DNA of 10,180 nucleotides, from contig JBNRMN010000018.1 in assembly GCA_050309605.1 (NCBI GenBank), positions 1 to 10,180 of the forward strand, in the 5' to 3' direction. A program made the translations under genes and the position numbers. The notes below the pieces were generated by a model. That model saw only the letters and a list, made by a program, of their open reading frames with translations. It searched no databases and had not been told where the DNA came from. Source of the DNA: Anaerohalosphaeraceae bacterium. Lineage in GTDB: Bacteria; Planctomycetota; Phycisphaerae; Sedimentisphaerales; Anaerohalosphaeraceae. Positions 1,316-10,180 of the stretch are shown here, piece by piece; the stretch's first letter is position 1, and the number at the start of each line of letters is the position of its first letter.

Positions 1316-1777
1316 TCAGAGACTCTTCCTCAGTTTTCCGCACGCCTGTATCATCTCGGCCAGTTCGCTCCTGCTCAATGCGCCCATTACTGTTTTAACC
1401 TCACGTCCGTACACGACGTCAATTTTATCCAGCAGGCGATTGGCCTTGTCTGTCAGTTGAATGATGTTATACCGCCGATCCTCGGCGGCGGTACGACGAA
1501 CAAAACCCTCGCGTTCCAGCCGATCCACCAGGCCCGTCACATTGGGCCGGTTCACCTGCATCAGCTCGCTGAGTCGGGCCTGGCTGAGACCTTGTTTGCC
1601 ACCCTGATGCCGCAACAGCATCAATAACTGAAACTGGACATCGGTCAGCCCATAAGGCCCGAAAAACTCACCGGCCCGCTTTTTGAGCTTCGCCGCGGTA
1701 TAATACAGATTCAGCAAGGCCTCATGTTCAATAAAGGCCAGCGGTTTATCCAGACGTAATTCCTCTTGTAGTCCCAT
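1316..1777 (-). CDS. MarR-family transcriptional regulator, 153 aa
   Basis: YGLTDVQFQLLMLL, LSQARLSELMQVNRPNVTGLVDRLEREGFVRR and the wing motif EDRR..IIQLTDKA are canonical MarR winged-HTH features; typical length. Confidence 0.95.
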   Translation of the reverse strand: MGLQEELRLDKPLAFIEHEALLNLYYTAAKLKKRAGEFFGPYGLTDVQFQLLMLLRHQGGKQGLSQARLSELMQVNRPNVTGLVDRLEREGFVRRTAAEDRRYNIIQLTDKANRLLDKIDVVYGREVKTVMGALSRSELAEMIQACGKLRKSL

Positions 1778-1911: not shown

Positions 1912-2664
1912 TCATCCGAGGATGAGTTTGACGGCTGCGGCGGCGGCCAGGAGCAGGGCGGCGGTGTTGAACAGGTTCTGGGGGATGCGTTTGAGCAGGA
2001 GGATGCCTAAAACCGCCCCGACGGCCACCGCCGGCAGCAGCAGCAGGTTGGTTTGCAGCGAGGCGGCGGTCATGAGCTGCTGCTGGGCATAGAACGGCAC
2101 CTTGATCCAGTTGACCGCGAAGAAAAACCACGCGCTGGTGCCGATGAACTGGTGTTTTGGCAGGCGCATCGCCAGCAAATAGAGCGTCATCACCGGCCCG
2201 GCGGCGTTGGCCAGCATCGTCGTCGCTCCGGCGGCGGCCCCCATAAACGGAGCGAAGGCCGGGTGATGCGGCACGTCGTCGGGGTTCTGTTTGGCCGACA
2301 GCGAGCGGCTTCGCAGCAGAATCATCGCCAGAACGATACCGCCGATGACGGGAGAAAACCGCTGATTGTCCAGCATCCGCAGCAGGACAAACCCGACCGC
2401 CAGCCCCGCCGCCGTCCAGGGCAGCAGCCGCAGCAGATGCGACCACCGGGCATGGCGGCGATACCAGCCGACAGCGAACAGGTCGGCAAAAATCAGCATC
2501 GGCAGCACCAGCCCAATCGATTCACGCGCCGGCACCGCCATCGCCGCCAGCGGCACGGCCAGAATGCCCGCACCGGGAAGGCCCGTCTTGGCCAGACCAA
2601 TCAACAGGGCACTGCACGCCAAAGCGGTCCATTGCAGCGGTTCAAGAGCAAGCGGGTTCATCAT
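1912..2664 (-). CDS. Sulfite exporter TauE/SafE (TSUP) family permease, 250 aa
   Basis: About 8 hydrophobic helices; family-typical segments LLIGLAKTGLPGAGILAVP, LPMLIFADLFAV, MGAAAGATTMLANAAGPVMTLYLL, FIGTSAWFFFAVNWIKVPFY. Confidence 0.9.
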   Translation of the reverse strand: MMNPLALEPLQWTALACSALLIGLAKTGLPGAGILAVPLAAMAVPARESIGLVLPMLIFADLFAVGWYRRHARWSHLLRLLPWTAAGLAVGFVLLRMLDNQRFSPVIGGIVLAMILLRSRSLSAKQNPDDVPHHPAFAPFMGAAAGATTMLANAAGPVMTLYLLAMRLPKHQFIGTSAWFFFAVNWIKVPFYAQQQLMTAASLQTNLLLLPAVAVGAVLGILLLKRIPQNLFNTAALLLAAAAAVKLILG

Positions 2665-2950: not shown

Positions 2951-3943
2951 TTAAGAAAAATGCAGCTCCACAATTTCTTTATCGGTCAGGACGTGGTCGC
3001 GGGGGACGTTTTGGCCGTCGTGGATGCCGGGGGCGTTCCAGGCACGGGCGCTTTTGAGCGATTCGGCCAGTTGGCGATGAATCAGCGTCGCCAGGTCCTG
3101 CACATCGGAGCCGCGCGGCAGCGTGAACGGCTCATTCATATCCGGTTCACGACCGGGCTTTTTGGCGTAAATCCGCACCACATCAAGCATTTCAAAGACC
3201 CGTTTGGCAAACGCATCCAGCCCCCGACCGGTGGACGCGGACACCTCGATATACTCAAACGGGCGCTCGGTCAGCTCTTTGAGAGTCTCCAGCGTGCCGG
3301 GCGGAGCGAGATCGGCCTTGGTCGCAATCACAAACGTTGGGCGGGCCAGATAATTGGCCGCATCGTCTTGATCGACCGTCGGATCCAGCATCAGCCGATG
3401 GGAATCCAGGTAGCGGGTGCAGACCTCCATCTGTTCAAGCACTTCACCGGCCAAATCAATGACAATCGCCAGCAGATCCGCCCCGCGGCAGGTATTGACA
3501 AACCCCGGCGCCGCATACTCAGCGGTGATCGGCGGCGTATCGACCAACTGAATCTGCACATCCTCATACAGCATCATCCCCGGCACGGGCTTTTCGGTGG
3601 CAAACGGATAGTCGGCGACATTGACCGGCGCATTGGTCAGGGCGGCCAAAATCGCGCTCTTGCCGGCGTTGGGCATACCGACCAGCACCACCTGTCCGGC
3701 GCCGCTGTGGGGCACGTGAAACACGTCCACATGCCGGGCGCCGCCTTTTTTGCCGGTGGTTTGAATCTCATCCTTGAGCTTGCTGATGCGGCGTTTCAAG
3801 TCGGCCTGCATGCTCTCGGTCCCCTTGTGCTTGGGGATGGTGCGCAACATCTCCTCCAGCGCCGCCAGCCGCTCGGTATCGCCGGCCGCGGAGCGAAACT
3901 TCGCCTCGGCTTTCTTGTATTCCGGTGTCAGATTCGCAGGCAC
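2951..3943 (-). CDS. DRG-like OBG-family GTPase with C-terminal TGS domain, 330 aa
   Basis: G1 GMPNAGKS, G2 ADYPFAT, G3 DTPP, G4 TKAD, G5 SAS. N-terminal helical region IPKHKGTE..ADLKRRISKLK like DRG proteins; TGS-like end (RIYAKKPG..P..L..GS.V.DLA..IH...GQNV.RDHVL.D.EIVELH). GTG start. Confidence 0.9.
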   Translation of the reverse strand: MPANLTPEYKKAEAKFRSAAGDTERLAALEEMLRTIPKHKGTESMQADLKRRISKLKDEIQTTGKKGGARHVDVFHVPHSGAGQVVLVGMPNAGKSAILAALTNAPVNVADYPFATEKPVPGMMLYEDVQIQLVDTPPITAEYAAPGFVNTCRGADLLAIVIDLAGEVLEQMEVCTRYLDSHRLMLDPTVDQDDAANYLARPTFVIATKADLAPPGTLETLKELTERPFEYIEVSASTGRGLDAFAKRVFEMLDVVRIYAKKPGREPDMNEPFTLPRGSDVQDLATLIHRQLAESLKSARAWNAPGIHDGQNVPRDHVLTDKEIVELHFS

Positions 3944-3997
3944 AACACGATCCGCTGAACAAGGGTTTTCACATTATCCATCAAAAATGAGGGTGTT

Positions 3998-6734: not shown

Positions 6735-7199
6735 ACCGTCCGCATCAGAACAAATCATCCATCGGGGCTGAACACGTTATCGGGCTTTTCCAAAAGAAAC
6801 CTTCGGCGTTATCGGACACTGTGCTTGATTGCGTAAAATTTTTTAGATTGTACTTGAGCGCACTGCAAGCGGGGTTTTTTATCATTCGCTCCGGTAACCC
6901 ATTTTCCGCACCGGGATATATCAACAGACAGGGACATATAATACCTTGGTTTTCAACAGAGTAATACGGAATACAGCAGGGCGATTTTCCCAAGAGATGT
7001 TCGGGAAAAATAACCATTGACCCCAATAACAGCGAATCATTTCCTCTTTGCTATCAAAGGATTTCCTTCGTTTTTTACAAATAGAACTTTTAAGTTCGTT
7101 TTATTTTTACGATGACACACCCCGTGAACAGGTTATCCCTGCAGGAAAACCAACGGCTGCGAACAGTCAATGTACTTCAATATCAGAAAGGAAGGCAGT

Positions 7200-7715
7200 A
7201 TGGCAAATACCACCACATCGCCCCCGCAGGCCGGCTCTGACAGGCAGAGTTTAGCGGGCAAATACCTGACGTTTACGCTGGGGGCTGAAGAATTCGGTCT
7301 GCAAATCCTTAAGGTTCGCGAGATCATCGGCTATATGGATATTACCGCCGTGCCGCGTGCCCCGCATGATGTGCGCGGCGTGATCAATCTCCGCGGGCAG
7401 GTCGTGCCCATCGTCGATATGCGGGCGCGATTCGGCATGGAGCCGATTGAGATCACCGACCAGACGTGTATCATCGTGGTCGAGGTCAAAGCCGGTCGGC
7501 AGAGCTTTCACACCGGCATCATCGTCGATCGCGTCTGCGAAGTGCTGGACATTGAGGACAAAGACATTGAGCCGACGCCGCAGTTTGACGGCAGCGTCGA
7601 TACGTCGTTTATCCTCGGCATGGGCAAGATCGGCGGCGCGGTCAAGATTCTGCTGGATATTGACCAGGTGCTGCATACACAGGAACTGGAGCAACTGGCC
7701 GACGTCCAGGTGTAA
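7200..7715 (+). CDS. cheW: Chemotaxis coupling protein CheW, 171 aa
   Basis: KYLTFTLGAEEFGLQILKVREII, ITAVPRAPHDVRGVINLRGQVVPIVDMR.RFG, GIIVDRVCEV, FILGMGK..VKILLDIDQVL. Start set to ATG 7200 after SD AAAGGAAGG rather than 7170. Confidence 0.96.
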   Translation: MANTTTSPPQAGSDRQSLAGKYLTFTLGAEEFGLQILKVREIIGYMDITAVPRAPHDVRGVINLRGQVVPIVDMRARFGMEPIEITDQTCIIVVEVKAGRQSFHTGIIVDRVCEVLDIEDKDIEPTPQFDGSVDTSFILGMGKIGGAVKILLDIDQVLHTQELEQLADVQV

Positions 7716-7763
7716 ACGGCGTCAGGAGTACTTCCTTATCGAATTTGCTGCCGGAGCCAAACC

Positions 7764-8195
7764 ATGGAACACATAGAATGGAGCGAGTCCTGTCGGATCG
7801 GCATTGATCGCATCGACGCTCAGCATAAACGGCTTTTCAATCTGGCCAACATCTTCTTTAAGACGCTCGACAGTCCCAAGCTGGCTGATTTCATCGAGGC
7901 GATCTTGTCCGGTCTGCTGGCCTATACCAAGAGCCACTTTGCCGACGAAGAGGCTGTGATGGAGATGTCGGGTTATCCGCATCTTCAAGATCACCGCCGC
8001 AGCCACCGCCGGCTTACCGAGGACGTCGAGGCGCTGAACAAACGCCTTCAGGAAGGCTTACCCATCGACAAGAATGCCGTCATGGTGTTCCTGAAAGACT
8101 GGTTGACGCGCCACGTGATGCAGGAAGACAAGCAAATCGGGCTATGGATACAGCAATCGTCTGTTCCCATCGGCCAGCAAACATCGACCCAATAA
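7764..8195 (+). CDS. Single-domain bacteriohemerythrin, 143 aa
   Basis: W...[42 protein letters not shown]: complete H/HxxxE/HxxxH/HxxxxD di-iron ligand set; SD GGAG. Confidence 0.95.
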
Positions 8196-8220
8196 CCCAC
8201 TGCAGAAAGGGTTTTTCGCC

Positions 8221-8607
8221 ATGAGCACATTCGAATGGTCAATGACGTATTCGGTCGGTATTGATGCAATGGATAATCAGCACAAGCGGCTCTTTGCGAT
8301 GGTGCAGCAACTGTATGAGGCGATGCACCATGGCAAGGGCGATCAGGTGATTTGCGAGATACTTGACCATCTACTCAGCTACACCTTACTCCATTTTTCC
8401 GCCGAAGAAGAGGTCATGCGCAAAGCCGGTTATCCCGATCTGACCTCCCACCTTGCCCTGCACAAGGCGTTTACGGACAAAGTCGGCCGGATGGCTGAAG
8501 ACCTCAAAACCGGCCGAATGGTCTCTGCCGCCGGCCTGGCAGCGTTCCTGAAAGACTGGCTCGTGCATCATATTCAGCAGGAAGACCGCCGATACGGTGC
8601 GTTTATC
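8221..8607 (+). other. Second bacteriohemerythrin domain
   Basis: [50 protein letters not shown]: all seven di-iron ligands present; SD AAAGGG upstream of 8221. Confidence 0.93.
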
Positions 8608-10180
8608 TGTGAAAGCAAACCGGTAAAGACGACTCGACACAGAAGCAACCTCCACTCTGCAACCGTTTTAACTGAAAGAGAATACCCCCCTATCAAAGGA
8701 AAGGACAGAACGATGTTTAAGAACATGAAACTGGGAACCAAGTTGATTTTGGCGTTTATGAGCGTCGCTGCAATCACGCTGATGCTCGGTGTGGTAGGCT
8801 ATTATGGCGCCGTGCAAAGTGAAAATTCGATCAATGAAATCGGTGCGGTACGCTTACCAAGTGTGGACAGTATGCTGGAAATTGAAAAGCAGGCTGAAAA
8901 TATTCGCGCCTCACTGCGTACATTGACCATTGCGGGACTGTCGCGTGAGGATCGCGAACGTCAATATCAAAATATTGAACAAGCCCATGAAGACTACCAG
9001 CAAGCATGGAAGATTTATGAACCGTTGCCCCAAACTCAGAAAGAAGCGGAATATTGGAATCAGTTTGTCAAAGCCTGGGACGCTTGGCGCGTCGAAAACA
9101 ATAAAGCGTTTGAGTTGTCTCGACAGTTTGATCAGATCGGTATTCAGGATCCGATGGATCTTGCCCGCCGATTGGAACAATATACCAAAGATCACTATAT
9201 TCTGGTTAACAACATACGGCAGCTTCTGGACGATTCTTCTGCAACCTTTCAGGGCGGCGACGATCATACCGTCTGTAACGCAGGACGCTATTTTCCGACC
9301 TTCCAAACCACGAACTCGGAATTGGCCTCGGCGTTGCGTGCTTTTGATGCGCCGCATCGTCGTTTTCACGAGACCGTCGGTCAGATCAAATTATTGGTTC
9401 AGAACGGCAATCAAGAGCAAGCCCGACAAATCTTTCAAAATGAGATGATGCCGGCTATGCAAGATGTCTTTGGCTCATTTGATACCATGCTGGCAATTGC
9501 CAATAACGCCAGCGATACCATGGTTGCCGCGCAGCAGCAGATTATGGGACCGGTGAGGCTTCGCCAAGAGGAGGCAACAGAATTGCTCGCCAAGATAGTT
9601 GATATCAACCGTGAAGTAGCTGCGAACGAAGTGGAAGACGCTCATGCTCAGGCCGTCTTTATTGAGATACTGTGTGTTACCGCCACGATCATCGGTGTCG
9701 CGCTGGCGATTGCGCTGGGCATTGTCATTACCCGTGCGATTACCAAACCGATCAATCAGATCATTGCCGGACTGACCGAAGGGGCGCAGCAGGTGGCGGC
9801 GGCGTCCGGACAGGTCTCGGCGGCCTCGCAGTCGCTGGCCGAGGGGGCAACCGAACAGGCGGCAGGATTGGAGGAAACGTCATCGAGCCTTGAGGAAATG
9901 TCCTCCATGACCAAACAGAACGCCGACAGTGCTCAGCAGGCCAACACATTATCCGATGAGGCCAGCCGTTCTGCCAAAAATGGTTCCAAACTGATGGGGC
10001 AGATGAGCAAGGCCATCGATGACATTCAGAAATCCTCGGATGAAACCGCCAAAATCATCAAGGTCATCGACGAGATCGCGTTCCAGACCAATCTGCTGGC
10101 ACTGAACGCCGCCGTGGAAGCGGCCCGGGCCGGCGAGGCGGGCAAGGGCTTCGCCGTCGTGGCCGAGGAAGTGCGGAATC
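8221..10180 (+). CDS. Methyl-accepting chemotaxis protein with in-frame N-terminal bacteriohemerythrin (Hr-TM1-4HB/CZB-TM2-MCP signal); 3' truncated; likely second start at 8713
   Basis: Manual translation of frame +1 shows no stop from ATG 8221 to the window end, which is presumably why the ORF track omits it. Hemerythrin motifs at 8221-8607; TM1 [25 protein letters not shown] (~8740-8814); TM2 [26 protein letters not shown] (~9655-9732); signalling hairpin [42 protein letters not shown]; methylation-type [16 protein letters not shown]. Confidence 0.93.
8695..8715 (+). promoter_or_regulatory. Internal ribosome-binding site and ATG for the MCP portion
   Basis: AAAGGAAAGGA, 7 nt, ATG 8713 followed by [15 protein letters not shown], a typical MCP N-terminus; closely resembles the cheW RBS region (TATCAGAAAGGAAGG versus TATCAAAGGAAAGG). 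Confidence 0.75.
9160..9492 (+). other. CZB-like (chemoreceptor zinc-binding) domain within the extracytoplasmic region of the MCP
   Basis: TKDHYILV (His 9193), [12 protein letters not shown] (Cys 9274), PHRRFHETV (His 9355, His 9367) match the CZB 3His/1Cys pattern H...CxxGx(W/Y)...HxxxH. Boundaries approximate. Confidence 0.75.

Follow-up and report, generated by a model that had tools for sequence, protein, structure and literature searches.

CZB domains have been studied experimentally only in cytoplasmic proteins, namely the Helicobacter pylori chemoreceptor TlpD and DgcZ of Escherichia coli. As far as the accessible parts of the reports go, the conserved cysteine of both proteins is the lid of the zinc site and the position oxidised by HOCl (PMC8262984; for TlpD also PMC12871147), zinc and HOCl sensing are reported for TlpD (PMC6715182; PMC12871147), and His22 and Cys52 are named as zinc ligands of DgcZ (PMC8262984). 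An outward-facing version of the domain has already been flagged: the available passages of Perkins et al. 2021 (mBio) count 384 'putative periplasmic CZB' sequences, about 3.9% of 10,140 CZB sequences, place this subgroup in cluster III with DgcZ and include it in a logo and a tree (PMC8262984). In the literature searched, the phrase 'periplasmic CZB' occurs in that article only. The present analysis concerns a receptor of this kind, a methyl-accepting chemotaxis protein (MCP) encoded at the end of a 10,180-nucleotide stretch from an Anaerohalosphaeraceae bacterium (Planctomycetota; assembly GCA_050309605.1). This stretch, the first 10,180 bases of contig JBNRMN010000018.1, is called the window in what follows.

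The sensor domain of the receptor is a Tar-like four-helix bundle (4HB; residues 35-142 and 266-312) interrupted by a CZB-type module of about 120 residues. The best explanation of this arrangement, to which a probability of roughly 0.55 is given, is a two-tier periplasmic sensor in which a zinc-thiolate site would be the sensing element. The receptor open reading frame (ORF) runs from the ATG at 8713 to the end of the window, where the contig end cuts the gene; the full-length protein has about 676 residues, as judged from a 90%-identical relative. Residue numbers are counted from Met 8713, the equivalent of which is the start in all close homologues. Coordinates are collected in Table 1.

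A four-helix bundle interrupted by a CZB-type module

The Pfam family 4HB_MCP_1 (PF12729) matches the receptor at 94.5 bits against a curated score of 27, with receptor residues 4-138 aligned to positions 1-134 of the 181 in the profile. TarH reaches 45.5 bits (curated score 25.2) and MCPsignal 110.3 bits (34.6). No HAMP domain appears among the Pfam families at E <= 1, nor does the HBM profile (PF16591). Hydrophobic stretches flank the sensor on both sides (19-residue windows within 7-34 and 310-347), positions 8815 and 9652 of the window corresponding to receptor residues 35 and 314.

The topology was judged from hydropathy and charge. Contact with CheW and CheA requires a cytoplasmic location of the signalling domain that follows the second transmembrane helix (TM2). 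Receptor biology then implies that the 280-residue domain enclosed by TM1 and TM2 must face the periplasm. A re-entrant or single-pass topology would instead leave the module in the cytoplasm as an ordinary CZB domain. This is hardly conceivable in view of the two clear hydrophobic helices (residues 10-33 and 314-340), the Lys-rich N-terminal stretch before TM1, the requirement for a cytoplasmic signalling domain and flanks that form a canonical periplasmic 4HB ligand-binding domain.

Residues 1-349 were modelled with AlphaFold2 from an alignment (A1) of the window protein and 115 of 120 relatives, the short fragments P0004, P0077, P0096, P0106 and P0116 being omitted. The model has a mean predicted local distance difference test score (pLDDT) of 93.7 and a predicted template modelling score (pTM) of 0.81, and shows helices at 7-70, 78-102, 109-142, 147-173, 189-196 and 202-230, followed by one long helix at 234-348. 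A Foldseek comparison of the model with the PDB returned nothing at E <= 0.001; PilJ, TorS, the DgcZ CZB domain and McpS head its list, with a template modelling score of 0.75 on the target and a root-mean-square deviation (rmsd) of 3.1 Å for DgcZ (3t9o_B).

Superposition of the Foldseek candidates with VIA-align places the DgcZ CZB domain (3t9o_B) on model residues 146-265, with Z 13.9 and rmsd 2.5 Å over 115 of 120 residues. The 4HB domains of MCP2201, PcaY, Tsr and Tar superpose with Z 13.4-17.4 and rmsd 1.7-2.9 Å, the best being MCP2201 (9kup_B; Z 17.4, rmsd 1.7 Å, 130 residues). These solved domains span the model from about 40 to about 310 with only 130-159 residues, skipping the middle. 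Taken together, the two fits indicate that the bundle consists of residues 35-142 and about 266-312, and that the CZB module fills the gap. In the model, the first CZB helix begins a four-residue turn after bundle helix 3, and the last runs unbroken into bundle helix 4 and TM2.

The limits of the module are also given by natural relatives. One homologous receptor (L012) is 64% identical over residues 1-140 and 59% identical from residue 263 onward, the two parts being joined directly. Precisely residues 141-262 are missing, and its Pfam match is an uninterrupted 4HB_MCP_1. The existence of such a relative marks the module as a discrete cassette. Another receptor (L016) is a plain 4HB as well. 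A further one (L038:1158-3260) keeps both flanks, at 58% and 53% identity, and carries an unrelated insert at the CZB site. One bundle scaffold occurs, then, without a distal module, with the CZB module or with a different module. The L038 insert comprises 156 residues (144-299 of that receptor), is helical in appearance, is without a Pfam family and may represent a further distal module of the plug-in kind.

A first-pass annotation, made from the letters of the window alone, had proposed a CZB-like block of about 110 residues spliced between bundle helices 3 and 4, enclosed by split 4HB segments and two membrane helices and facing the periplasm. Its placement and orientation are borne out by the Pfam matches, the hydropathy, the model, the superpositions and the insert-less homologue. 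The block itself is present, but is longer than proposed, at about 120 residues (141-262 by the deletion variant, 146-265 by structure). The composite sensor that the annotation envisaged, with zinc or oxidant sensing in the block and a second ligand in the bundle, is a putative function.

The predicted zinc site as a putative sensing element

The Pfam CZB profile (PF13682) matches receptor residues 161-225 with E 2.3e-6 and 28.3 bits, covering positions 1-63 of 64. The codons at 9193, 9274, 9355 and 9367, to which the first-pass annotation had drawn attention, do encode His161, Cys188, His215 and His219, the four predicted zinc ligands. Cys188 is the sole cysteine between the two membrane helices. 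It opens the motif C188-N-A-G191-R-Y193, which has the Cys-x-x-Gly-x-aromatic pattern of CZB domains, and in the model a short helix (189-196) follows it. An hhalign comparison of the profile with the single sequence of E. coli K-12 DgcZ pairs all four positions (window/DgcZ: H161/H22, C188/C52, H215/H79, H219/H83) with E 0.0015; the aligned segments include window KDHY, DgcZ NHSYGLCQFGRW and window PHRRFH opposite DgcZ AHQHMH. His79 and His83 are presumably the other two zinc ligands of DgcZ.

These residues are highly conserved. A search with the sensor part retrieved 314 proteins at E <= 0.001 among 4,015 candidates. The best 120 of the 314, mostly about 665 residues long, form a 121-row alignment with the window protein, and 86 of these 120 have a precomputed PF13682 match together with PF12729 and PF00015. 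His161, Cys188, Gly191 and His219 are present in 121 of 121 rows and His215 in 120. An exhaustive HMMER search with the 280-residue domain against 1.84 billion representatives retrieved 1,474 proteins at E <= 0.001, of which 712 pass 1e-10 and 268 pass 1e-30. Nearly all of the best 150 matches cover the domain end to end, and the complete domain is common to at least 268 clusters at 50% identity.

A more diverse set was composed of representatives sharing <= 50% identity. It holds 149 rows with residues at all four ligand columns, query included, and four further rows that are fragments or a spurious second hit. The H-C-H-H quartet is found in 142 of the 149; the seven exceptions read QCHH (three rows), NCHH, TGHY, HSHY and VRHM. 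Conservation in this set reaches at least 93% at W115, P147, D160, H161, G181, C188, G191, H215, H219 and A237. All but W115 lie within the module, most of them in or beside the H-C-H-H motifs. The aromatic position after the cysteine is W in 86, Y in 26 and F in 9 of the 121 relatives, and W in 132, F in 14 and Y in 4 of the 153 diverse rows. Tyr193 in place of the usual tryptophan, as had been noted from the letters, is a minor variant.

Two observations on individual residues may be added. The metagenomic relative P0139 reads C---KFF at window residues 185-193, without the upstream His, and keeps the four ligand positions. A second metal site in the membrane-near bundle was considered and rejected: apart from the predicted ligands, the periplasmic domain has no histidines but H92 and H311, and 113 of 121 relatives carry Arg at position 92.

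The insert could also be unrelated to CZB, its His/Cys pattern having arisen by chance in an additional pair of helical hairpins. Such a chance resemblance is very improbable. It would account for the score of the window protein, which is 1.1 bits below the Pfam gathering score of 29.4, for the absence of a Foldseek match at E <= 0.001 and for a phmmer search of the CZB segment against PDB sequences that returned no CZB and only chance rows at E >= 0.25; the link to DgcZ emerged from profile and fold comparisons instead. On the other side, the profile is covered end to end, and the family is recognised in most of the listed relatives. Among 14 long representatives scanned, PF13682 scores 29.6-33.9 bits on the periplasmic module in 11, above the curated score; of the remaining three, one reaches 28.3 bits, one has no match and one has a score dominated by a second, C-terminal CZB. 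The CZB-bearing loci scanned (5/5) score 33.8-43.5 bits. Moreover, all four ligands pair with those of DgcZ and are near-invariant, and 3t9o_B is matched over almost its whole length.

In the proposed two-tier sensor, the membrane-near tier would be the Tar-like bundle, with the CZB-type module between helices 3 and 4 stacked on its far end. A single zinc ion is most likely coordinated by the four predicted ligands of the module. The stimulus could be loss or gain of the metal, or an oxidant (possibly sulfide or a thiophilic metal) attacking the single exposed cysteine. Either event might loosen the short helix that bears the cysteine and displace the last CZB helix; this displacement would be carried by the unbroken helix into the final bundle helix and TM2, and would alter the control of CheA via neighbouring CheW. 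The continuity of helix 234-348 makes this route of transmission structurally plausible. If DgcZ and TlpD are a guide, output is most likely regulated by the zinc-thiolate site. The candidate stimuli are oxidants, sulfide, and metals that are thiophilic, zinc in its free form among them.

The main rival to this proposal holds that the zinc is structural. The 3His/1Cys site would be a permanently filled clamp that stabilises the distal module, and the signal would be a small molecule or a partner protein bound elsewhere, for example at the 4HB dimer interface or on the surface of the distal module, as in the stacked sensors of the HBM, TorS and PilJ type. This is possible rather than probable. 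The subfemtomolar zinc affinity given for DgcZ in the available text (PMC8262984) fits a permanent structural metal as well as a sensor. The whole domain resembles two-tier sensors (TorS 3i9y, Z 15.0; PilJ 8wdf, Z 13.0; McpS 2yfa, Z 11.7), bundle positions P49, L71, L105, P106, W115 and W125 are well conserved too, and the acceptance of a different distal module by the same scaffold (L038) is expected of interchangeable ligand binders. However, the most conserved positions are mostly those in or beside the H-C-H-H motifs, not in another pocket, and an extracytoplasmic domain would not usually retain a single free cysteine, as 148 of 153 rows do, if it served only as a clamp. In the studied CZB proteins, according to the accessible parts of the reports, the same site is a regulatory element (PMC8262984; TlpD preprint PMC12871147).

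Several further observations weigh against a zinc-thiolate sensor, in addition to the DgcZ affinity and the profile score below the gathering threshold. Seven of the 149 complete relatives persist with part of the quartet lost, and P0139, a hemerythrin-fused relative, lacks three residues of the Cys motif. The hhalign probability against DgcZ is only 16.5%, the target being a single sequence. Helical bundles score high in general, and de novo designed bundles reach Z 11-12.5 on the same range; the fold match alone is weak and counts only together with the H-C-H-H motif. In the literature searched, no experiment on any periplasmic CZB was found. Finally, the hemerythrin genes described below adjoin the receptor only in this family of genomes, none being present beside it in five other CZB-bearing loci examined.

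Hemerythrin fusion, gene neighbourhood and distribution

The receptor is the last gene of a row cheW - hemerythrin - hemerythrin - MCP (window 7170-10179). The second hemerythrin has no stop codon and is in frame with the receptor Met 8713, so that the ORF 8221-10179 is open throughout. This in-frame hemerythrin was absent from the first-pass annotation. The segment 8221-8607 belongs to the bacteriohemerythrin family (NF033749 / PF01814), and its residues H21, H58, E62, H81, H117 and D122, which are taken here to be the iron ligands, are invariant in a four-sequence alignment.

Contigs from 4/4 sequencing runs compared (four studies) cover 8150-9633 without an indel and show no change in 8560-8712; the read-through from hemerythrin to receptor is therefore not an assembly slip. 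One of these four runs is near-identical and may be a source of the window DNA. The same fusion is found in a genome of another genus of the family (G429), with an intact CNAGRF motif, and in the metagenomic protein P0139 (823 residues, 50% identical). A genome of the same genus (G002, locus L003) has the same gene row, but its second hemerythrin stops and is followed by a 98-nucleotide spacer. Yet another genome (G035, locus L004) has a 74%-identical receptor and cheW, and the hemerythrins are absent. A Shine-Dalgarno-like GGAAAGGA precedes the ATG at 8713 of the window, so an unfused form of the receptor, of 676 residues in place of the 840 of the fused form, may be made as well. A word-index search for long proteins with a similar N-terminal hemerythrin returned one unrelated protein, of metallo-beta-lactamase/cNMP architecture.

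The fusion suggests that one receptor senses redox both inside and outside the membrane. Since a cytoplasmic bacteriohemerythrin is fused to the receptor N-terminus, the receptor is likely to serve an anaerobe in oxygen or redox taxis. Runs holding at least half of the sequence words come from litter, soil, biofilm and gut (digester and sludge rows left out), and these habitats, together with the fusion, point towards an oxygen or redox stimulus. A more elaborate proposal is a two-compartment redox chemoreceptor, in which a cytoplasmic diiron hemerythrin before TM1 would sense oxygen or redox inside, a periplasmic zinc-thiolate CZB would sense oxidants, sulfide or free zinc outside, and both would act on the same signalling helix pair. 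This proposal is tentative and, as it stands, unlikely. If true, a strict anaerobe would compare its outside and inside redox states in one molecule, and the CZB cassette would be a plug-in extracellular oxidant sensor moving between 4HB receptors.

The 14 long representatives scanned are all chemoreceptors, some with added HAMP or PAS domains. One of them, P0239 (835 residues), combines the periplasmic CZB with a strong C-terminal cytoplasmic CZB (90.1 bits, two stretches). The record titles of the relatives name Thermodesulfobacteriota, Planctomycetota, Verrucomicrobia and others. Within the phylum the distribution is patchy: the 122-residue cassette occurs at E <= 1e-8 in 8 of 401 genomes sampled, the window's own included. 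The cheW gene adjoins the CZB-bearing 4HB receptor in four of five other loci (L006, L008, L014 and L015; not L007). No RNA run is listed as containing the window stretch.

Two observations concern the end of the window. Contigs of two independent runs (X8 and X9) match the window as far as 9633, a little short of TM2; beyond this point both carry one and the same unrelated sequence. The pattern suggests that a strain differs here, that recombination has joined the sensor to another signalling part, or that the assembly branches among paralogous MCPs. A paralogous MCP (L002; G000:C26:12739-14169), whose periplasmic domain is a different one and CZB-less, is likewise cut by a contig end, and its signalling domain breaks off at the same point. 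It shares a near-identical stretch after TM2 with the window receptor and is 69% identical over residues 272-489; this shared repeat probably breaks the assembly at window position 10180.

The remaining genes of the window are included in Table 1. A 332-residue ORF at 2960-3958, on the strand opposite to the GTPase gene, is probably a shadow of that gene.

Table 1. Features of the window, listed from the receptor and its parts to the neighbouring genes.
Feature	Position	Strand	Basis or remark
Methyl-accepting chemotaxis protein	8713..10179	+	489 residues within the window; gene cut by contig end
TM1, residues 10-33	8740..8811	+	Hydropathy; within model helix 7-70
Four-helix-bundle helices 1-3, residues 35-142	8815..9138	+	Pfam 4HB_MCP_1; model helices; superposition on MCP2201, PcaY, Tsr, Tar
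CZB cassette, residues 141-262 (deletion variant) / 146-265 (structure)	9133..9498	+	Pfam CZB; DgcZ 3t9o_B fit; L012 receptor
His161, predicted zinc ligand	9193..9195 (CAC)	+	Aligns with DgcZ His22
Cys188, predicted zinc ligand and candidate redox switch	9274..9276 (TGT)	+	Aligns with DgcZ Cys52
His215-x3-His219, predicted zinc ligands	9355..9369; codons 9355 (CAT), 9367 (CAC)	+	Align with DgcZ His79 and His83
Final four-helix-bundle helix, residues 266-312	9508..9648	+	Model helix 234-348; 4HB structures align to model residues 304-319
TM2, residues 314-340	9652..9732	+	Hydropathy and model
MCP signalling domain start, residues 413-489	9949..10179	+	Pfam MCPsignal, profile 3-79 of 172; contig end cuts
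Bacteriohemerythrin 2 (residues 1-129, 8221-8607) and 35-residue linker	8221..8712	+	NF033749 140.9 bits vs 84
Bacteriohemerythrin 1, 143 residues	7764..8195	+	Separate gene with own stop; Pfam Hemerythrin E 4.6e-16; NF033749 119.8 bits vs 84
cheW, 181 residues, first in row	7170..7715	+	Pfam CheW PF01584, 129.2 bits
ORF, 739 residues	4515-6734	+	NCBIfam 'fused MFS/spermidine synthase' 56.9 bits (cut-off 40), residues 397-683; no Pfam match at E <= 0.001
GTPase with TGS domain	2951-3943	-	
TauE/SafE-type exporter	1912-2664	-	
MarR-family regulator	1316-1777	-	
ORF, 352 residues	137-1195	-	No match in Pfam (E <= 0.001) or NCBIfam (E <= 0.01)

Comparison with known sensors

By facing outward, a zinc-thiolate switch would be exposed directly to oxidants, metals or sulfide that have yet to cross the membrane. 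Uncultured anaerobes supply most of this large family, so that one characterised member would annotate hundreds of receptors. The insert-less homologue and the homologue with another insert are ready-made controls for chimeric-receptor experiments, and the recurrent hemerythrin fusion is a testable hint about the stimulus.

A close counterpart of the module is the CZB domain of DgcZ (PDB 3T9O), likewise a four-helix module with His/Cys/His/His at equivalent positions. DgcZ is cytoplasmic, however, with its CZB N-terminal to GGDEF and an identity to the window module of about 12-20%, whereas the window module is nested in another domain, faces outward and feeds a chemoreceptor. TlpD of H. pylori and TlpD-like soluble receptors are CZB-regulated chemoreceptors with the same type of 3His/1Cys zinc site, according to the accessible text (PMC12871147). 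Their CZB is C-terminal, cytoplasmic and packed on the signalling coiled coil, while the window CZB is periplasmic and must signal through TM2.

The membrane-near tier is the same bundle as the 4HB domains of Tar, Tsr, MCP2201 and PcaY, which are uninterrupted, in contrast to the window receptor with its 120-residue cassette between helices 3 and 4. As a whole, the sensor is a two-module rod comparable to HBM (McpS), the TorS sensor and PilJ (Z 11.7-15.0 over 223-236 residues). These differ from it in their whole-domain fit (rmsd 7.5-8.8 Å, McpS 8.8 Å) and in having no CZB metal site. The window sensor is HBM-like in build and is not filed as HBM.

For the hemerythrin fusion, DcrH of Desulfovibrio vulgaris provides a parallel. 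In the window receptor the hemerythrin precedes TM1 and a periplasmic CZB is also present, whereas the hemerythrin of DcrH is located at the C-terminus. Both are bacteriohemerythrins fused to the MCP of an anaerobe, and oxygen or redox sensing is proposed for DcrH in the part of the report available (PMC9388753).

Like the window receptor, the members of the periplasmic subgroup of Perkins et al. are transmembrane MCPs whose N-terminal, extracytoplasmic part contains a CZB motif; the available passages give a count and a logo only, without structure, module placement or experiment (PMC8262984). The window family may be among the 384 sequences. In listings and abstracts of the literature on CZB with periplasmic, 4HB or hemerythrin, the nested arrangement, an experiment on it and a hemerythrin fusion were not found. 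The novelty implied by the first-pass annotation was too high, given that earlier flag (PMC8262984) and the size of the family. The window receptor belongs to a large, already flagged and uncharacterised family; what is new is the description of its structure, the variants of the cassette and the fusion to a hemerythrin.

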